From an uncultured delta proteobacterium (GTDB lineage Bacteria; Desulfobacterota; Binatia; Binatales; Binataceae): a stretch of 64,000 nt of DNA. Shown piece after piece: positions 5,436 through 63,456 of the stretch; positions within the stretch are counted from its first letter, which is position 1, and each line of letters starts with the position of its first letter. The position numbers were made by a program, and so were the translations under genes. The stretch lies in contig CAVQAR010000018.1 of NCBI GenBank assembly GCA_963710425.1, forward strand, positions 71,506-135,505, in the 5' to 3' direction. The notes under the pieces were generated by a model. The model made no database searches. It was not told the origin of the DNA and worked only from the letters and a program-made list of their open reading frames with translations.

Positions 5436-5873
5436 TTGAATGTGAAACCCTCCGCGGGTTTCACGCTTCCGCGGCAGGGGTGACCCCTGCACCCGGTGAA
5501 AAGTACTAATCGCAAAATGGCGAGGACGCCATTTTGCTCAAGGTTCTTTTGTCCCGTGTCATTCAGTTCCTTGTGTCATTCAGAGCGGAGCGAAGAATCC
5601 CGGTTTTTTTCTGTGTCCTTGCAGGCCGCTGCGGCCTCCGATACCTCGCCCGTTATTTTTACGGGAGAGGCGGCCGGACGCATCGCGGCCGGTAGGTGAG
5701 GGTGCTGGGGCTCAAGCTGCCCGGAAGGAGCGGGGATTCTTCGCTGCGCTCTGAATGACACAAGAAAGAACTCAGAGCAAAATGGCGTCCTCGCCATTTT
5801 GCGATTGATACTGGGTGCAGGGGTCACCCCTGCCGCGGAAGCGTGAAACCCGCGTAGGGTTTCACATTCAATG
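5436..5873. repeat. ~438-bp nested palindromic composite of intergenic hairpin-repeat modules
   Basis: Left arm 5436-5540 is the reverse complement of right arm 5775-5873 (modules GTGAAACCC..GGGTTTCAC, GCAGGGGTSACCCCTGC, GCAAAATGGCG..CGCCATTTTGC). An inner inverted pair GTGTCATTCAGAGCGGAGCGAAGAATCCC (5574-5601) / GGGATTCTTCGCTGCGCTCTGAATGACAC (5733-5761) flanks a ~130-nt core. The core carries a module also seen at 19548-19608. Confidence 0.9.
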
Positions 5874-52694: not shown

Positions 52695-53827
52695 TTGCAG
52701 CATTGGCACATCATAACCGGCGGCTATCCTCCGCAGCCCGGTGGAGTGAGTGACTATACGCGTCAGGTCGCAGTTGAACTGGCGCGCGCCGGCGACGTGG
52801 TGAACATCTGGGCTCCCGCTTGTGGACATGGCCGATCCGATCGATGCCGGCGTCGCGGTGCATCGCTTGCCCGGCCATTTCGGACCGCGCGCGATCGCGC
52901 TTCTCGATCGTCAGCTCAACAGGAACCCGGCGCCGTATCCTGGTGCAGTACGTGCCGCATGCGTTTGGTTTCAAGGCGATGAACTTTCCCTTCGTCTCAT
53001 GGCTGTACGCGCGACGCCGCGCGAATATCTCGGTCATGTTTCACGAGGTTGCCTATCCGGTCGATCCGTCGCAGTCGCTCAAACACAACCTGCTCGGTGT
53101 GGCGACGCAAAAGATGGCTGCGATTGTTGCGCGAGCGGCCGGCCGAATCTTCGTCTCCACTTCTTCATGGGAATCGCAATTGCGCGCACTTTCCGGAACT
53201 GCAAAACCAATCGTATCGATTCCGGTTCCGAGCAATCTCCCAGTGGTCGAAGATTGTATGGCGGTGCAGGCTATACGACAGCGCCACTGGCCGGTCGAAG
53301 GACCAATCGTCGGACATTTCGGAACCTACGGCGACAGCATCGCCAAACTGCTCGACCGAATTCTTCCGGCGGTACTTGTCGATGTCCCGCACGCGTCGGC
53401 GTTTCTCATCGGACGCAACAGCGAGGTTTATCGCGAAAGATTGATCGCCACGAATCCACAAGTTGCCCGCAGAATTGCCGCGACTGGAATGCTCGGAGAG
53501 CGCGACGCGTCGGCGCACATCAGCGCCTGCGATTTGATGCTGCAACCGTATCCCGACGGCATCAGCACGCGGCGCACGAGCGCGATGGTCGCTCTAGCGC
53601 ACGGGCGCGCGCTCGCCACCACCTCGGGCCATCTGACCGAATCGCTATGGGCAGAGAGCGGGGCAGTCGCCATCTCGCCGCTGAATGAACCGCTCGAGAA
53701 TGCCCGTCTGGCTAGCAGCATTCTGCTCGACGCGCCGCATCGCCAGCAGCTTGGTTCGGCCGGCCGCGCGCTTTACCGCAGTCAGTTCGACATCAGTAAT
53801 ACCGTTGCAGCGTTGCGTGCTGCGTAA
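52695..53827 (+). CDS. GT-B glycosyltransferase, frameshifts near 52815 and 52932
   Basis: Starts at a TTG, (M)QHWHIITGGYPPQPGGVSDYTRQVAVELARAGD. Continues as VDMADPIDAGVAVHRLPGHFGP (ORF 52822..), then RRILVQYVPHAFGFKAMNFPF..GHFGTYGD..QPYPDGISTRRTSAMVALAHGRALATT (ORF 52820..53827). Confidence 0.7.
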
Positions 53828-55092
53828 TGCGTATCGCGGTTGCAAACTTCAGCTCGCGCCGGGTTGGAGGCGCTGAAAGTTACATCGAGGAGGTCATCGC
53901 CGAGTTCGCCAACTCCGGCCATGACGTCGGTCTCTTCGTCGAACTTGATGTCCCAGCCGATCGCGCTGCGATTCGGCTCCCTCGCGAATCGCCGCTATGG
54001 TGCGTCGCGAACGAATCTATGACTGGCGCGCTCGCTGCGATGCGCGAATGGCATCCCGATCTGATCTTTGCGCATGGATTAGTTAGTCCCGAGAATGAAG
54101 CCGCGACGTTGTCGGTCGCTCCCAGTGTGTTCTTCGCGCATGGGTACTACGGCACCTGCATCTCCGGCGCCAAGACCAATAGCTTTCCGAATGTCGTTCC
54201 GTGCACGCGGATCTTCGGTCCCAAATGCCTTCTGCACTTCTACCCGCGGCGCTGTGGAGGGCTGAGTCCCGTCACCGCGTTGATCGAATACCGCCGCCAG
54301 GCAGATCGCCTCAAGCTGCTTCGAAGTTACCGCGCAATACTCACTGACTCGACGCATATGCGCGAGGAATATCTCCGCCACGGGTTCGATCCCAACATAG
54401 TAATCAGGAGTTCGTACCTTCGGGATACAAGCCCGGGCCTGGATGTCTCGATCGAATCGGCGAATCGCGACACCAACGGTACCGCATCCGGCGGCCCTGC
54501 GCGGCTGTTGTTTCTCGGACGAATGGATGCGCTCAAGGGCGGGTTGATACTGTTGGACTCCTTGCCGATAGTCGCGGCTGCACTCGACCGGCCGATAGAA
54601 CTGACGTTCGGCGGCGACGGCCCATGTCGCGATTCGTGGGCCCGTCGCGCGCAATCAATCAGCGCAAAAGACACTCGCGTGAAGATTGTGTTCGAGGGAT
54701 GGTTGGGAGCTGAACGCATCGCGGAACTCCAGGCTTCATCAGATTTGCTCGTGATGCCCAGTTTGTGGCCCGAGCCGTTCGGCCGAGTTGGTCTCGAGTC
54801 GGGATCGAAGGGCCTGCCGGTCGCCGCGTTCGCGGTCGGAGGAATCCCGGACTGGCTGCACGACGGAGTCAACGGCTACATGGCAGTCGGCGATCCGGCA
54901 ACTTCTGACGGTCTGGCGGATGCGGTCGTAAAATGTCTCCGCTCGCCGGCCGAGCACGCGCGACTACGTCGTGGCGCAATCGCTATGGCAAGCCGTTTCA
55001 ATCTGCACAATCACATGGCGCAGCTTTACGATCTCTTTGAGCAGGTCGCTGGACGTTCAGTGTCCGGCGAAGCCGAGATGTCATCGCATTGA
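53827..55092 (+). CDS. GT-B (family 4-like) glycosyltransferase
   Basis: 421 aa: MRIAVANFSSRRVGGAESYIEE..LLFLGRMDALKGG..WPEPFGRVGLESGSKGLPVAAFAVGGIPDWL. Confidence 0.85.
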   Translation: MRIAVANFSSRRVGGAESYIEEVIAEFANSGHDVGLFVELDVPADRAAIRLPRESPLWCVANESMTGALAAMREWHPDLIFAHGLVSPENEAATLSVAPSVFFAHGYYGTCISGAKTNSFPNVVPCTRIFGPKCLLHFYPRRCGGLSPVTALIEYRRQADRLKLLRSYRAILTDSTHMREEYLRHGFDPNIVIRSSYLRDTSPGLDVSIESANRDTNGTASGGPARLLFLGRMDALKGGLILLDSLPIVAAALDRPIELTFGGDGPCRDSWARRAQSISAKDTRVKIVFEGWLGAERIAELQASSDLLVMPSLWPEPFGRVGLESGSKGLPVAAFAVGGIPDWLHDGVNGYMAVGDPATSDGLADAVVKCLRSPAEHARLRRGAIAMASRFNLHNHMAQLYDLFEQVAGRSVSGEAEMSSH

Positions 55093-56291
55093 TTTCCGAC
55101 GCTCGCGAATCGCGACTACGAGTATTGTTTTTCGTTGAAGGCTTTACCGACATCCGCTTCGTGATCGGACTCAGCGAGCTTTGCGACCTCACAATGGTCG
55201 TGCCGGAACGGCAATACCTTGAAAGTGGGCTCAAGGGACGAATCGAGAGCGCCGGTTGCCGGATCGATGTAATAACTGTGCCGGGCGGCCGGCCGGCTTT
55301 TCAATTTCGCTCGCTGCGACGCCTCTGGTCGCTCGCGCCACGCTTCGACGTAATCCTTGCGCAAGAGGTTCTGCGCGGCGCCCTCAATGCCAACATCGTT
55401 GGCACGATTCGAAGGGTCCCGGTGGTAACGTACATGTGCGCCTCTCCGCTGGAGTATTTCCGATGTCGGCGCGAACGCGTGCAGATTTCAGCTCCCATTT
55501 CATTATTGGGCCAGTCCGTGATCTCGACCTTGATGACTGTGAATGGAAAGCTCGCGACTCAATGCGTGGCGATGGGGCGCTACCTTGCCGGCGTCGCGGG
55601 CAAATATTGTTCGACCGTTAGCGTCGGGCTCTACTATGGAATCGATACCAACGTCTTCCGCCCCGTGACAGTGGCCGAGCGCTCTCAGCTTCGTGAGCGT
55701 CTCGACCTCCCGCTCGATAAATTTATCGTCTTCCTTTCAAGTCGAATCAGCCACGAGAAGGATCCCGAGACGGTTTTGCGCGCGGTTTCGATTGCCCGCC
55801 GCAACGGTCTCGACGCGATTCTGCTCAATCTGGGCGGCGGTTTCCGCGACTTCCTGAATCTCGCCCACGAACTCGGACTTCCAGATGTCGACCGCTGGAT
55901 TATCGGGCGTCCCGCCGCGAATCCGATTACCGAGGTTCATCGTTTTTTCCAGGCCGCCGACGCGACTGCTCTCGCTTCTCTGGCCGAGGGTCTCGGAATT
56001 TCTCCACTCGAGTCGCTTGCCTGTGGCACTCCCGTCGTCGCTACCGCTGTTGGCGGGATGGCGGTGGAACTGGAGGGTTATGCCCGCCTGGTTCCGCGCC
56101 GCGATGCGGAAGCGATGGCGCGCGAGCTTTTGTGGATTGCCGCAAATCGCGAGGCGGCCAGCGCGCAGGCGCTGAAGGGACGCGATCACGTTGTGCGCGA
56201 GTGGCGCCGCGAGAAGGCATTCGCCGATTTGCTGGCTGTGCTCGAATCTGTTTCAGGGTTGCGTCAACAATCAAATCTCAAGAGCGCGTGA
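55089..56291 (+). CDS. GT-B (family 4-like) glycosyltransferase
   Basis: 400 aa: ..FIVFLSSRISHEKDPE..LAEGLGISPLESLACGTPVVATAVGGMAVEL. 4-nt overlap with the upstream gene. Confidence 0.85.
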   Translation: MISDARESRLRVLFFVEGFTDIRFVIGLSELCDLTMVVPERQYLESGLKGRIESAGCRIDVITVPGGRPAFQFRSLRRLWSLAPRFDVILAQEVLRGALNANIVGTIRRVPVVTYMCASPLEYFRCRRERVQISAPISLLGQSVISTLMTVNGKLATQCVAMGRYLAGVAGKYCSTVSVGLYYGIDTNVFRPVTVAERSQLRERLDLPLDKFIVFLSSRISHEKDPETVLRAVSIARRNGLDAILLNLGGGFRDFLNLAHELGLPDVDRWIIGRPAANPITEVHRFFQAADATALASLAEGLGISPLESLACGTPVVATAVGGMAVELEGYARLVPRRDAEAMARELLWIAANREAASAQALKGRDHVVREWRREKAFADLLAVLESVSGLRQQSNLKSA

Positions 56292-56304
56292 TAAGGTCTC
56301 GCAA

Positions 56305-57078
56305 TTGATTGAAGGCGTTCAGACCGGGCATTACGCTCGCAAGCAAATCTTTTCCCGCAGCGCGATTGTTGCCTGGAGCCATCGCAGCCGCTTTCGGTAT
56401 GCCCGCAAACTAGTCGAGCCGTACGCCGGCCGCCGCCTGCTCGACTATGGTTGCGGTGACGGCACGTTCCTCGCGCAAGTCTGCGATCTGTTCCCGAATG
56501 CAGCAGGCGCCGACGTCGATTCGCGCCAGAACGACGACTGCCGCAAGCGCTTCGCCGCGCATCCCGGGATTTCATTTCTTTCAATCGACGAACTCGAGCA
56601 ACCGGCTCATCGCGGCCGCTACGACGTCGTGACCTGCATGGAAGTACTCGAGCATTGCATTCCGGAAACGACTGAAAAGGTGATCGGCGACTTGCGCCGG
56701 CTGGTTGCGCCGGGTGGAACGGTCGTCATCAGCGTCCCAATCGAAATTGGACCGACCTTGCTTGGCAAGCAGATGATCAGAGCGCTCGCGGGATGGCGTT
56801 CGATCGGCGACTACAAGTTCCGCGAGAAATACACCGCCGCCGAGCTTGCCACGATGCTGCTCGCGGATGAAGGGACTGCAATTCAGCGTCCGATCCATCC
56901 AGCACCGGATGGCAGCCAGCCGTCTCACGGTCACAAGGGATTCAACTGGCGGGCGCTGCGCCATCGGCTGCAGGACGAATTCGAAATCAGAACAACACGT
57001 TTCTCTCCGCTAGAGTTCCTGCGTGGCTATGCCAGCAGCCAGGCGTGGCTGATATGCGCGCCGCGTCCTCGCAGCTAG
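56305..57078 (+). CDS. class I SAM-dependent methyltransferase
   Basis: [57 protein letters not shown]. Start tentatively at TTG 56305 (the tracked ORF starts inside the previous gene). Confidence 0.8.
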
Positions 57079-57082
57079 TCAG

Positions 57083-58261
57083 GTGCAAGCCAAACCCCGG
57101 GTCGCCGTCATTTCCGATTTCATCGAGGAAGGATGGCCGAGCATGGACCTGGTCGCCGAGATGCTGTGCGATCACCTGGCCCGTGACCATGCAAAATGCT
57201 TCGAGGTCGAACTGGTGCGGCCGCGTTTCATCTGGCCTTCGAGCCATCGCAGAATCACGAACGAACGATGGATCACCGCGGCAAGACTGTTTAACCGCTT
57301 TGCGGTTTACCCACGATGGATCTCGCGCAATCGATCGCGCTTCGACATTTTTCATATTGTCGATCACAGCTACAGTCACTTGATTCATCATTTGCCGGCC
57401 GATCGATGCGTCGTCACATGCCACGATCTCGACACCTTCAAGTGTCTGCTGGAGCCGGACCGTGAGCATCGTTCGTGGGCCTTTCGCGCGATGACGCGGC
57501 GAATCTTGGGAGGCTTCCGTAAAGCCGCCAGGGTGACCTGCGTTAGCAGCGCGACTCGCGACGACATCGTCAGGCGCGGACTTATTCCGAGCGATCGCCT
57601 GGAAGTGGTGCCCAACGGTGTGCATCCGATCTTTACTGCGGTCGCCGATCCCGATGCAGACGCGGAAATTTGCAGGCTTCTCGGACGACGTAACATCGGC
57701 TCGATCGAAATATTGCACGTCGGAAGTACCCAGCCGCGCAAACGAATCGATCTGCTGCTCAGAATCTTTGCGGCGGTGCGTGCGAACCATCCCGGCGCGC
57801 GGCTGGTGCGCGTCGGAGGCGGCTTGACGACGCAGAATCGGAGTCTTGCCGAACAGCTTCACGTATCGGACGCGATCACGATCCTTCCGTTTTTGGAATG
57901 TCGCACGCTTGCTGCCGCTTATCGAAGGGCGGACGTTCTCGTGCTGCCATCGGACGCGGAGGGCTTCGGACTTCCAATCATCGAGGCCCTGGCCTGTGGT
58001 GCTCCGGTGATAGCCAGCGATCTGCCCGTTCTGCGCGAGGTCGGTGGCAACGCGGTGCGCTACTGTGCAGTCGGTGACGTGGACGCGTGGAGTAGTGCGA
58101 TCATCGACGTGATTCGCGAGCGCGATGCCAATGGCGATGCCCGTCTTGAAAGACGCGCCCGCGCAACCGCGCATGCGTCGCGATTCAGTTGGAGCGCGAA
58201 TGCCGAGCACGCGGCGCACACCTATCGCGAGTTACTGGATCGCGCGAAACCGCGCACCTGA
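57083..58261 (+). CDS. GT-B (family 4-like) glycosyltransferase
   Basis: 392 aa: ..[48 protein letters not shown]. Confidence 0.88.
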
Positions 58262-58275
58262 CAAGCAAGGACTCG

Positions 58276-59370
58276 GTGCCTGACGCCCATCTCCGCGTAG
58301 TTCATCTTGTACCGCAGCTGTTTGGCGCGCACGACGCAGTTTATGGCGGCGCCGAACGATACGCACTCGAACTCGCGACACACATGGCGGAGCGCGTCGA
58401 CACTATCCTGCTGACCTTCGGCGACCGCGCTCGCGAAGAGACCATCGGCAAACTACGCGTCAAAGTAATCGGCAATCCCCACCATGTACGCAATCAAAAG
58501 AACAACATGCTTGCATGGGGCCTGTTCCCGCAGTTGCGGCGCGCGGACGTCGTGCACTGCCATCAGCAGCACCTGCTCGCGAGCAGCCTCGCCGCCCTTT
58601 ACTGCCGGATGAACGGGCGCAAGGTGTTTGCCAGCGACCTCGGCGGCGGCGGCTGGGACATCTCGAGCTACATTTCTACCGACGCTTGGTATCACGGTCT
58701 GCTTCACATCAGCGAATACAGCCGAATGATCGCAGGACATGAAAACAATCCTCGCGCGCACGTGATCCTTGGCGGCGTCGATACGCGGAAATTTTCCCCC
58801 GCGCCTTCGATCAATCCTCGCGACTACGTTCTTTTCGTCGGCCGGCTCCTGCCACACAAGGGAATCGATAATTTGATTCGCGCGATGCCCGACGACCTCG
58901 AGCTTCAGATTATTGGACAAGCCTACGACCAGCGTTACTTCGACGACCTCGCGCGTCTGGCCGAATCCAAGCGCACGATCTTTCGCCGCGACTGCGACGA
59001 CGCCCAATTGATCGACGCCTACCGCGGAGCGCTCTGCGTCGTGCTGCCAAGCGTCTATCAAACCATGTACAACGACTATTCCCCGGTACCTGAACTCCTG
59101 GGCCAGACCTTGCTCGAAGGGATGGCGTGTGGGGTCCCGTCGATATGCACCAGGGTCGCGAGCATGCCCGAAATTGTCGACGACGGAGTAACCGGGTTCA
59201 TCGTGCCTCCGAACGACCCGGCCGCATTGCGCGAGAAGATCTCTTGGCTGCGCAATCATCCCACCGACGCCGCGGCGATGGGCCGTCGCGCGCGTGAACG
59301 CGTGCTCGACAAGTTCACCTGGCCGCAGGTGGTAGATCGCTGCTTAACGATCTATGACGCCGCACAGTGA
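58276..59370 (+). CDS. GT-B (family 4-like) glycosyltransferase
   Basis: LRVVHLVPQLFG..YGGAERYALELA..VLFVGRLLPHKGIDNLI..LLEGMACGVPSICTRVASMPEIV. Start tentatively at GTG 58276. Confidence 0.85.
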   Translation: MPDAHLRVVHLVPQLFGAHDAVYGGAERYALELATHMAERVDTILLTFGDRAREETIGKLRVKVIGNPHHVRNQKNNMLAWGLFPQLRRADVVHCHQQHLLASSLAALYCRMNGRKVFASDLGGGGWDISSYISTDAWYHGLLHISEYSRMIAGHENNPRAHVILGGVDTRKFSPAPSINPRDYVLFVGRLLPHKGIDNLIRAMPDDLELQIIGQAYDQRYFDDLARLAESKRTIFRRDCDDAQLIDAYRGALCVVLPSVYQTMYNDYSPVPELLGQTLLEGMACGVPSICTRVASMPEIVDDGVTGFIVPPNDPAALREKISWLRNHPTDAAAMGRRARERVLDKFTWPQVVDRCLTIYDAAQ

Positions 59371-59549
59371 CGTGCGCGGTCTACGCGAATGTTAAATTCA
59401 CGTAGCACAATTGACGTACAGGTCGATCCCCTGCCATCATTAGTAACAGAGAAGTTCCGCTCTCTTTAGAATCGCCGGAAAGATGCTCAGATAGAAGGGG
59501 CCGCAGCGCTCCTTCACTGTCTCCGGGGGCTTAATTTTCGCTGTCTGAG

Positions 59550-60830
59550 TTGATCGATTTCACGAAGCGGCGCCGCCGCGAGACCTCAACCAACGGTCTC
59601 GACGGCGGTATCATCTTAAAGCTTTCTGGGGCAACCTTGGGCCACCCGCAAAAACTAAGCGTTCTCCACATTGGCAAGTTCTATCGGCCTCATCTCGGCG
59701 GTATTGAGACACATGTCGAATCGCTTTGCCATGGATTGCGCAAATCGATGGACGTGCGCGTGCTGGTGGCCAGCAACCGCCGGTACCGCGAGAACAGCGT
59801 GATCGACGGGATTCCCGTAACCCGGGTTCACGTCCCTGTGACTATCGCCGGCGCCCCAATCTGTCCGGGCATGGTTGGACAGATTCGCAAGAACCGCCCC
59901 GACATCATCCATCTTCATCTGCCAAATCCCACTGGTGTCCTGGCAGTGCTGGCTAGCGGATACCGGGGACGAGTCGTCGTCACCTGGCACAGCGACATAG
60001 TGCGCCAGCGCCGGCTCGCCCGCCTGTATCGACCGATCGAACGGATTTTACTCAACCGGTGTTCCACGATCATCGCTTCTTCGCCCGCTTATATTGCCAG
60101 CTCGCCGGTGCTCCGCGAACACGCCGATCGATGCCGCTCGATCCCGTTTGGAATCGACGCGGAGAAATTCGACGTCCGTCACGTTGACCAGGCGCTGCTT
60201 CGCGATCTGCGCGATCGCTTCGGACCGAGAATGATCCTGTCAGTCGGACGACTGGTCTATTACAAGGGAATTCAGTTTCTTATCCAGGCGATGGCGAAAG
60301 TCGACGCCAAACTGGTGATTATCGGCGAGGGACCGATGCGCCCGTCCCTCGAGCAGGAAGTGGCAGCGCTCGGAATCGCCGACCGGGTTATCTTTCTCGG
60401 CCGGGTTCACGACAATCTCACTACCTATTTCCACGCCGCCGACGTCTTCGCGCTGCCGTCTTGCGAACGCAGCGAGGCCTTCGGGATAGTTCAATTGGAA
60501 GCGATGGCGTCCGGTAAGCCTGTGATCAACACGCAGATCGATTCGGGCGTTCCGTACGTATCCCTCGACGGGATCACCGGTATCACGGTCGAGCCAAGAA
60601 GTTCGGAAGCGATGGCCGCGGCCCTGAACCGGTTGTTTGACGACCCCGAGTTACGACGACGGATGGGGCAAGCCGGCCGTCACCGGGTGCAAACAGAATT
60701 TAACCTCGACCTGATGGTGCGGCGGACGATGGAAATATATGAACAAGTCGGTGCGAGAGAGATAAGCGCCCATTTTGAAAGCAACGGGGCTGCGCGAGGC
60801 GAGTTTACATCGCATGTTGCAATGCGATAG
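59550..60830 (+). CDS. GT-B (family 4-like) glycosyltransferase
   Basis: LSVLHIGKFYRPHLGGIETHVESL..ILSVGRLVYYKGIQFLI..RSEAFGIVQLEAMASGKPVINTQIDSGVPYV. The true start may lie downstream of 59550. Confidence 0.85.
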   Translation: MIDFTKRRRRETSTNGLDGGIILKLSGATLGHPQKLSVLHIGKFYRPHLGGIETHVESLCHGLRKSMDVRVLVASNRRYRENSVIDGIPVTRVHVPVTIAGAPICPGMVGQIRKNRPDIIHLHLPNPTGVLAVLASGYRGRVVVTWHSDIVRQRRLARLYRPIERILLNRCSTIIASSPAYIASSPVLREHADRCRSIPFGIDAEKFDVRHVDQALLRDLRDRFGPRMILSVGRLVYYKGIQFLIQAMAKVDAKLVIIGEGPMRPSLEQEVAALGIADRVIFLGRVHDNLTTYFHAADVFALPSCERSEAFGIVQLEAMASGKPVINTQIDSGVPYVSLDGITGITVEPRSSEAMAAALNRLFDDPELRRRMGQAGRHRVQTEFNLDLMVRRTMEIYEQVGAREISAHFESNGAARGEFTSHVAMR

Positions 60831-60965: not shown

Positions 60966-61718
60966 GTGAAGGAGAGCAAAATGACCTCTTGGCGAATAAC
61001 GGCGCTGGCGTTCGTGGCGCTGCTGACGATTGTGGCGGTCCCGTCCGCGCACGCCCAGAATACCGTCGGCACTATCACGCAAATTACCGGCGCCGCGACT
61101 ATCCAGCGAGGTGGCGCGACCATTGCCGCGGTGCCGAACATGCCGGTGATGCTGCACGACAAGATTGTGACCGGGGCCGGCGGAAGCCTGACCATCGGCT
61201 TAGTGGATAACAGCTCTCTACAATTAGGCGAATCCTCGACCATTACTATCGACGATAGCGTTCTGGTCAATGGAGTCGGCGCGCCCAGCAAGGTCGGTCT
61301 GCTCGGGGGCGACTTGCACACTGTAATATTGGGCGCGATGCGCGGCACTTCGACCACCTTCCAGGTCAATACACCTAACGCCATCGGAGCGGTTCGCGGA
61401 ACCTCCTGGCATGAGCACTACGACGAGGACGAGCATAAAGAATCCAAGGGTTGCCGCCAGACCACTGAGGTTGACGTTGACGACGGCACGGTGCAGGTCT
61501 GCAATACCGAGAATCCGCCTGTATGTAAGGATATCCACCAAGGCCAGCACACCTACGTCAGATGCGGCGCATTCTGGCAGGGAGGCGGCTTGGGTGGAGT
61601 GGCTGCGGGAGCGCTTGGAGTAGGCTTGGCAGCCGGTATTGGCGTCGGAGTAGCGGCAGGAGCCGGATCTTTTAACGGCGGCGGCGGTAACGGCGGTCCA
61701 TCTACAGGTTCCAAGTGA
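60966..61718 (+). CDS. secreted FecR-domain protein with Gly-rich hydrophobic C-terminus
   Basis: Signal peptide ..ALAFVALLTIVAVPSAHA. FecR-like segment TGAATIQRGGATIAAVPNMPVMLHDKIVTGAGGSLTIGLVDNSSLQLGESSTITID. C-terminal GGLGGVAAGALGVGLAAGIGVGVAAGAGSF. Confidence 0.7.
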   Translation: MKESKMTSWRITALAFVALLTIVAVPSAHAQNTVGTITQITGAATIQRGGATIAAVPNMPVMLHDKIVTGAGGSLTIGLVDNSSLQLGESSTITIDDSVLVNGVGAPSKVGLLGGDLHTVILGAMRGTSTTFQVNTPNAIGAVRGTSWHEHYDEDEHKESKGCRQTTEVDVDDGTVQVCNTENPPVCKDIHQGQHTYVRCGAFWQGGGLGGVAAGALGVGLAAGIGVGVAAGAGSFNGGGGNGGPSTGSK

Positions 61719-62905: not shown

Positions 62906-63017
62906 GACGACTCCATGGGAAGTAAGTTTCGCGCCCGCTGAATTGTAGCCGCTCGCGGCATTTCCATCAAAGCCTGTGCATCGCCTATGCTTTCAAAAAA
63001 TCTCGACGAGGAAAACG

Positions 63018-63371
63018 ATGGAACGCATAACCCTTTTTCACAACCCCGGATGAGGCAACTCACGCGGCGCGCTTGATCTTCTTCGCGCCCGCAAGGTCGA
63101 GTTCGACCTCATCGATTATCTAAAAGATCATCCGACCCGCGATCAGCTCGAGAAAATAGTCGGCATGCTCGACGGCCCGGTCGCCGACCTGGTCCGCAAG
63201 GACAAGCGCTTCAAGGAGCTCGGCTTGAATCCCGGTGACTACGCCGACAAGAAGGCGGTCGTCACGCTCCTGCTCGAGCATCCCGAGCTGATGCAGCGCC
63301 CAATCGTAATTCGCGGCAAGCGCGCAATAATCGCGCGCCCCCCGGAAAAACTCGAAGCTCTATTGTCCTGA
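63018..63371 (+). CDS. arsC: ArsC-family (glutaredoxin-type arsenate reductase-like) protein with in-frame TGA at the catalytic Cys position; candidate selenoprotein
   Basis: ATG 63018 opens MERITLFHNPG-TGA(63051-63053)-GNSRGALDLLRARKVEFDLIDYLKDHPTRDQLEKIVGMLDGPVADLVRKDKRFKELGL..HPELMQRPIVI. This is in frame with tracked ORF 63165..63371. It aligns with the ArsC HNPxCxxSR motif, with TGA in place of the Cys codon. Confidence 0.7.
63064..63092 (+). promoter_or_regulatory. SECIS-like stem-loop downstream of the in-frame TGA
   Basis: GCGGCGCG (63064-63071) pairs with CGCGCC(C)GC (63084-63092) with one bulged C. 12-nt loop CTTGATCTTCTT. The stem starts 10 nt after the TGA. Confidence 0.5.
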
Positions 63372-63440
63372 CACTGGGTGCAGGGGTCACCCCTGCCGAA
63401 GGAAGCGTGAAACCCACCGCGGGTTTCACATTAAATTAAG
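63372..63440 (+). repeat. two-hairpin intergenic repeat unit
   Basis: CACTGGGTGCAGGGGTCACCCCTGCCGAAGGAAGCGTGAAACCCACCGCGGGTTTCACATTAAATTAAG. Lies between the convergent genes arsC and rpmB. Confidence 0.9.
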
Positions 63441-63456
63441 TGAATTGCGCGTCGCG

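Follow-up and report, generated by a model that had tools for sequence, protein, structure and literature searches.

The selenocysteine (Sec) form of ArsC (COG1393 / TIGR00014), with its UxxS motif, was first predicted in 14 sequences from the Sargasso Sea metagenomes (Zhang, Fomenko and Gladyshev 2005, PMC1088965), and reviews of the prokaryotic selenoproteome from 2022 (PMC9312934) and 2026 (PMC13188914) include the family. Here we describe an arsC-like gene located at positions 63018 to 63371 (plus strand) of a 64-kb stretch of DNA from an uncultured, Candidatus Binatus-like bacterium of the Binatia (assembly GCA_963710425.1, contig CAVQAR010000018.1), the whole of which is hereafter called the window. 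It very probably encodes a 117-residue glutaredoxin-type reductase of the ArsC family, in which a UGA-encoded Sec would take the place of the nucleophilic Cys12 (HNPG-U-GNS-R, UxxS) and a conserved hairpin downstream of the UGA, H2 (63093-63110), would act as the recruiting element. Like the described Sec-ArsC family, the gene matches TIGR00014 and Pfam ArsC, has its predicted Sec at the nucleophilic Cys within a UxxS motif (U-G-N-S), has widespread Cys homologues, and carries a stem-loop with a loop G inside the coding sequence past the UGA. Unlike that family, which came from marine plankton, it belongs to Binatia of terrestrial peat and soil.

For the bacterial Sec insertion sequence (SECIS), the bSECISearch model (Zhang and Gladyshev 2005, summarised in PMC13188914) specifies an upper stem of 4-16 base pairs (bp), an apical loop of 3-9 nucleotides (nt), a G at loop position 1 or 2 with G or U as the usual next base, a distance of 16-37 nt from the UGA to the apical loop, and a minimum free energy (MFE) of -7.5 kcal/mol or lower; some bacterial SECIS elements depart from this consensus (PMC13188914). 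H2 resembles the element of the model and that of fdhF in being a short hairpin within the open reading frame (ORF) past the UGA, with an upper stem of 6-7 bp and a 4-nt loop in which G and then U or G stand at positions 2 and 3. The loop of the E. coli fdhF SECIS is GGUC, with a spacing of 18 nt between the UGA and the loop. In contrast, H2 lies 46 nt from the UGA, beyond the distances of the model; a separate GC-rich hairpin, H1, occupies the interval, and no bulged U is evident. The elements of the locus are the following.

63008-63012, plus strand: Shine-Dalgarno motif GAGGA, 5 nt upstream of the ATG (direct reading of the sequence)
63018-63371, plus strand: full-length arsC-like gene of a predicted selenoprotein, 117 codons including Sec12 (translation, Pfam ArsC and TIGR00014 matches, alignment with PDB 1I9D, selection on the coding sequence)
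63051-63053, plus strand: in-frame UGA, predicted Sec codon (U12, motif U-G-N-S; TGA or TGC/TGT in orthologues, aligned with Cys12 of R773 ArsC)
63064-63092, plus strand: GC-rich hairpin H1, a possible spacer, unsupported as a SelB-binding element (energy as drawn, conservation counts in orthologues)
63093-63110, plus strand: hairpin H2, SECIS-like core, with the stem 63094-63099/63104-63109 and the tetraloop AGUU at 63100-63103 (RNAalifold, covariation)

Translation of the window places the start codon of the gene (ATG) at 63018-63020 and its own stop codon (TGA) at 63369-63371. The frame reads MERITLFHNPG-TGA-GNSRGALDLLRARKVEFD..., extends after the TGA as GNSRGALDLLRARKVEFDLIDYLKDHPTRDQLEKIVGMLDG and ends in EALLS; the TGA at 63051-63053 is its sole internal stop, which confirms the 117-codon frame proposed in a preliminary description of this DNA. 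That description had also anticipated that ORF callers would miss the N terminus. Indeed, in the ORF list of the window the gene begins only at ATG 63165 (68 amino acids [aa]), since the interval between the TGA and 63165 contains no in-frame ATG, GTG or TTG, and a public call of an orthologue, P0096, is truncated likewise.

The likeness to ArsC extends along the whole length of the product, as initially described. Pfam ArsC (PF03960) matches residues 7-114 with 47.2 bits (cut-off, 24), and, with the 117-aa product scored with Cys in place of Sec, TIGR00014 (arsenate reductase [glutaredoxin]) is clearly the top NCBIfam model, ahead of NF007456 (74 bits). A search of the PDB yielded colinear alignments with residues 1-112 of the R773 / E. 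coli ArsC, in the form of the plasmid R773 structures 1I9D and 1JZW (E values of about 4.5e-18 to 5e-18; 4.6e-18 for 1I9D). In these alignments the HNPxCxxSR active-site loop is matched, position 12 falls on Cys12, where the preliminary description had placed the TGA, and Arg60 (LVRKD), Arg94 (MQRPIV) and Arg107 (IARPPE) are kept at identical positions. We take Cys12 to be the nucleophile and the three arginines to be the arsenate-binding residues of the R773 ArsC family. The product differs from R773 ArsC in its predicted Sec at position 12 and in its length (117 aa versus 141 aa), so that it has no C-terminal extension.

Codon 12 was compared across the best 80 orthologous loci (L001-L080), taken from one-genome-per-species GTDB representatives, mostly Binatia, which together with the window give 81 genes. 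It is TGA in 44 of them (43 orthologues and the window) and TGC or TGT, the two other codons foreseen in the preliminary description, in the remaining 37 (TGC in 34, TGT in 3). A TGA at one codon in so many genes of independent assemblies far exceeds what chance would give. The orthologues as a whole share 54-96% amino acid identity with the window and the TGA-bearing ones 57-96%, and the residues around codon 12 read HNP(G/A)-x-G(N/S/K/Q)S(R/K). The TGA-bearing genes stem from unrelated projects and technologies, namely long-read MFD metagenome-assembled genomes (MAGs), palsa, SPRUCE, SMAG and JGI metagenomes. None of the 81 genes has an additional in-frame stop, and no copy is frameshifted. 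In the TGA genes, the ratio of nonsynonymous to synonymous polymorphism (pN/pS) is 0.25 over codons 1-11, 0.43 over codons 13-49 and 0.33 over codons 50-116, close to what the Cys genes give; the codons upstream and those downstream of the TGA are both subject to purifying selection. A Shine-Dalgarno-like motif precedes codon 1 in 42 of the 44 TGA genes. Since TGA is also the terminal stop of many of them, including the gene of the window, UGA has not been reassigned and is still a stop in these genomes. The pairing of TGA with Cys codons at a redox-active position classically marks a selenoprotein. This pairing, the selection on both flanks and a hairpin specific to the TGA genes make it highly likely that the UGA at 63051-63053 is decoded as Sec, as had been proposed for this catalytic Cys position.

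The residue that precedes codon 12 varies in step with it: HN(P/Q)-G-U is found in each of the 44 TGA genes, whereas the Cys genes mostly read HN(P/Q)-A-C, with S/V-C in Actinomycetota and G-C kept in a few (L047-L049 and L060). This covariation could reflect a structural accommodation of selenium or an effect of the UGA context (GGA/GGC UGA G). A neighbor-joining tree of the protein intermingles the Sec and Cys forms and requires, by the Fitch criterion, at least 14 U/C switches, a count that is approximate because 116 aa give a tree of weak resolution. Three of the loci (L035, L037 and L043) have Binatia-like arsC genes and synteny, yet their MAGs are labelled Candidatus Acidiferrales, Gammaproteobacteria or Actinomycetes, which suggests mis-binning or mislabelling; the arsC stretches compared are identical between L042 and L043.

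RNAalifold found H2 as the only consensus structure in the TGA set and nothing comparable in the Cys set. Its core, GUCG-AGUU-CGAC plus three further pairs, occupies alignment columns 43-49/54-60 (63093-63099/63104-63110). In the TGA genes, 96.3% of the alignment cells are paired, with compensatory changes in four of the seven pairs and the other three invariant. The variable pairs are 43/60 (GC, AU, GU), 44/59 (AU, GC, GU), 45/58 (UA, CG, GC) and 46/57 (GC, AU), and the compensatory variants are AAG..CUC, GAU..AUC, GGU..ACC, GGC..GCC, AGU..ACU and GGCA..UGCC. The covariation score of the two-helix structure in the TGA set was reached by none of 500 shuffles. Moreover, the pairing alters codons 26 and 31 jointly (K..L, D..I, G..T, G..A, S..T, G..V), and these coordinated amino acid changes imply that the constraint acts on the RNA. 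At the same columns of the Cys genes, 71.8% of the cells are paired and covariation does not rise above shuffles.

The loop follows the same division. In the TGA genes, the tetraloop is AGUU in 38, CGUG in 3 and AGGU in 3, which gives NG(U/G)N in 44 of 44, whereas the Cys genes have ACUU, ACCA, AAUU and other loops at this site. The third-position entropy of codons 27-30 is 0-0.16 bit in the TGA genes, against a gene mean of 1.08, and 0.49-1.67 in the Cys genes. On average, the H2 region folds with an MFE of -10.45 kcal/mol in the Sec genes versus -4.6 in the Cys genes. Young Cys derivatives have H2 intact (L003, L060) or with one lesion (the loop G in L011, one stem pair in L013), and in the older Cys clades it is degraded or lost. 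H2 is functionally tied to the UGA. It agrees with the bSECISearch model in its loop (4 nt), its stem (6-7 bp), its loop G (44 of 44) and its MFE. The core itself, GTCGAGTTCGAC, occurs once in the window, and control shuffles give a comparable count, so that its uniqueness alone is not significant. A long-range pairing of GAUGAGG, in the UGA region, with CCUCAUC, just 3' of H2, appears in the MFE fold of the window; it is unconserved in orthologues and was set aside.

The hairpin that the preliminary description had named as the SECIS element is H1, and the conserved, TGA-specific hairpin turns out to be the next one, H2. H1 can be drawn as described, with 8 bp, one bulged C and a 12-nt loop (-10.7 kcal/mol). 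That it is the functional SECIS, with H2 accessory or unrelated, is nevertheless unlikely. In support of such a role, the distance from the UGA to its loop is 18 nt, within the 16-37 nt of the model, and the mean stability of the H1 region is higher in the Sec than in the Cys genes (-15.3 versus -11.0 kcal/mol, a comparison that is not phylogenetically independent). However, the loop as drawn exceeds the 9 nt allowed and begins with CU, in disagreement with the required G, and in the majority register it has 4 nt, of unconserved sequence (AUGC, CUUC, AUAC and others), with no G at the first two positions. Over the 44 TGA genes, 76% of the H1 cells are paired (73.5% in the majority-register variant) with 0 compensatory changes and no excess over shuffles, and the register shifts between orthologues; the conservation of a hairpin expected among TGA-bearing orthologues thus holds for H2 and not for H1. 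Very similar GC-rich hairpins also form in the Cys genes, as a result of the CGC, GCG and GGC codons used there for SRGALExLRAR, and third positions in H1 are only slightly less variable in the Sec genes. For the region as a whole, folding is not improved over shuffles (z = -0.75). In 34 of the 44 TGA genes, the 3' end of H1 lies at alignment column 42, directly adjoining H2.

Three further explanations dispense with Sec altogether. The TGA is one base change from TGC or TGT, and automatic callers annotate C-terminal fragments only, as would be seen if a nonsense mutation had left a pseudogene or a truncated gene yielding a C-terminal fragment or no product. This is scarcely credible, since the TGA is kept in 44 species-level genomes over a wide range of identities, with low pN/pS both in the 11 upstream codons and in codons 13-49, and since a fragment starting at M50 would be without the active site. 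Even less can be said for a sequencing or assembly error at 63051-63053, which has nothing beyond its single-base nature in its favor: 43 other assemblies, obtained by different projects and technologies, share the TGA at this codon, and the identity of residue 11 (Gly before U in every TGA gene, Ala before C in most Cys genes) changes along with it. Because the TGA is conserved, the frame is under selection, no other stops occur and the Shine-Dalgarno motif is kept, both readings are untenable. Finally, the UGA might be recoded by near-cognate read-through, with insertion of Trp, Cys or Arg and with H2 as a generic stimulator of read-through or pausing. This would fit with the greater distance of H2 from the UGA than in typical SECIS elements and with the search of the window and the orthologue flanks, which gave no gene of the Sec machinery. 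We consider it very improbable, since the family has its redox-active Cys at this site and only Cys codons alternate with the UGA, as expected of Sec/Cys pairs, since the N-G-(U/G)-N tetraloop of H2 fits the SelB-recognition pattern of the consensus model, and since selenoproteins of this very family are already on record from other bacteria.

Several observations weigh against the interpretation of the gene as a Sec-containing ArsC served by H2. The 46 nt that separate the UGA from the H2 loop (63054-63099) exceed the 16-37 nt of the model; in the window, the H2 stem has 6 bp owing to an A63093/C63110 mismatch, compared with 7 bp in most orthologues, and its energy of -7.8 kcal/mol is barely beyond the -7.5 threshold. 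H1 shows no covariation in any fixed register, which bears on its possible part as a spacer. On the protein side, the TIGR00014 score narrowly misses the equivalog cut-off (100.8 versus 106.05 bits). The genomic setting also differs from the arsRBC operon of R773 ArsC, in that here a solitary gene lies amid housekeeping genes (rpmB, mutL, miaA, accA). Its neighbours in the window are a glyoxalase gene, a gene for an unknown protein and rpmB, and in L002 and L083-L085 a gene for an unknown 411-aa protein, mutL, miaA and accA lie beyond arsC; no ars-operon setting (arsR, arsB, acr3) is found around the gene in the window or in these loci. Association with ars genes is typical of the ArsC family and does not define it, but its absence here means that arsenate may not be the physiological substrate.

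The genes of the Sec machinery, whose absence could be counted on the same side, were sought in the window and the orthologue flanks. No tblastn match (E ≤ 1e-3) to E. coli SelA, SelB or SelD (NC_000913) was obtained in the window and the flanks of L001-L080, about 1.3 Mb, and ARAGORN detected no selC (tRNA-Sec), either in the window or among the 60 orthologue loci L001-L060. Since this search covered the window and flanks and not whole genomes, the result is neutral: it neither supports nor refutes Sec decoding. ARAGORN reported no tRNA gene whatever in the 64-kb window or in L001-L060 (about 1 Mb in total), indicating a tRNA-poor neighbourhood, although this absence is weaker than it appears because the loci are largely syntenic.

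In the mechanism that we propose for Sec insertion, translation would begin at ATG 63018 and, with the ribosome at the UGA, SelB and Sec-tRNA(Sec) would be recruited by an mRNA structure within the coding sequence. The conserved part of this structure would be H2, with its N-G-(U/G)-N tetraloop and 6-7 bp, to which we infer that SelB binds. It is possible, as a tentative conjecture given the lack of covariation in any fixed register, that H1 acts as a spacer. By folding up the intervening 26-29 nt, it would leave about 10-13 nt single-stranded after the UGA and would place H2 beside the ribosomal mRNA entrance. The minimal SECIS of E. coli fdhF has a spacing of 11 nt, comparable to that which H2 would have with H1 folded. 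More speculatively, and with some doubt on our part, the locus might represent a bipartite class of SECIS, in which a SelB-binding hairpin about 40 nt past the UGA would be brought to the mRNA entrance only via the folding of the sequence-variable H1. As for the chemistry, by analogy with R773 ArsC, a selenolate replacing the Cys12 thiolate would attack arsenate, and glutathione and glutaredoxin would resolve the reaction; the predicted enzyme may reduce arsenate and benefit from the selenolate.

The truncation of the gene in automatic calls extends to public databases. Our protein search yielded numerous orthologues of full length (116 aa, with HNPACGNSR), together with clusters of 95-99 aa that open at an internal Met just past the active-site loop (P0059, P0070, P0082, P0088, P0091, P0094, P0096, P0107, P0109, P0112, P0114 and P0119, from ENA, JGI, NCBI and Logan); some of these short "ArsC" clusters hold 27-93 member sequences. 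For P0096 (96 aa; GCA_052916045.1 and two JGI metagenomes) we located the underlying DNA (L083-L085, 3001-3291), in which the sequence upstream of the call encodes MERITLYHNPG-TGA-GSSRGALE. Since P0096 is the truncated call of a TGA-bearing gene, such mis-annotation of ArsC is probably widespread. Public calls are systematically wrong for this gene: fragments of 95-99 aa without the active site stand in dozens of 90%-identity clusters of soil and peat metagenomes and in at least one NCBI assembly.

Scans for further cases gave no convincing second selenoprotein. A comparison of read-through frames with standard ORFs for U/Cys pairs, over the window and all loci, returned only arsC (paired with Cys in 33 of 33, as the positive control) and, besides it, low-complexity shadow frames, and a search for the H2 core elsewhere in the 1.39 Mb of loci brought up no credible candidate. 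A codon-usage scan for other TGA-interrupted genes proposed five candidates, all of them off-frame or antisense and artefact-like, with a filter that missed arsC too. Scanning downstream of every TGA of the window for SECIS-like hairpins gave 28 matches including arsC, the remainder lying outside credible coding frames. Rfam contributed nothing relevant, either over the whole window at gathering thresholds or over 62950-63450 at E ≤ 10, where the sole match (AS-traI, E = 0.96) is due to chance.

Elsewhere in the window, a run of same-strand ORFs at 52800-60830 includes at least one clear GT4 glycosyltransferase (59550-60830, with Glycos_transf_1 and Glyco_trans_4 domains) and, by eye, several further glycosyltransferases and a methyltransferase-like ORF (56191-57078); it looks like a polysaccharide biosynthesis cluster. 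Positions 60966-61718 encode a protein that looks secreted and that combines a FecR domain with a C-terminal tail rich in Gly (GGGLGGVAAGALGVGLAAGIGVGVAAGAGSFNGGGGNGG). A hairpin scan also showed, at about 5480-5830, a perfect inverted repeat of 10-11 bp, GCAAAATGGCG-AGGA-CGCCATTTTGC (-16 kcal/mol), probably serving as a bidirectional terminator where two genes converge.

The protein family is already known and its occurrence here is no surprise to specialists; what is new is the lineage, Binatota, and the position of the conserved hairpin. A literature search linking Binatota or Binatia to selenocysteine or seleno- terms returned nothing relevant. The 44 TGA and 37 Cys genes constitute a clean natural experiment, which pinpoints the mRNA nucleotides tied to UGA recoding, and the element so identified lies outside the spacing range of the standard bacterial SECIS predictors, a point that bears on their tuning. 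If the bipartite SECIS proved true, tools that demand 16-37 nt would systematically miss selenoprotein genes of the Binatota. The gene points to Sec decoding in this abundant, uncultured phylum of soil and peat, and the bipartite reading, if it held, would also imply that Sec use, together with recurrent switches from Sec to Cys (14 or more by the gene tree), is an undescribed trait of the Binatota.

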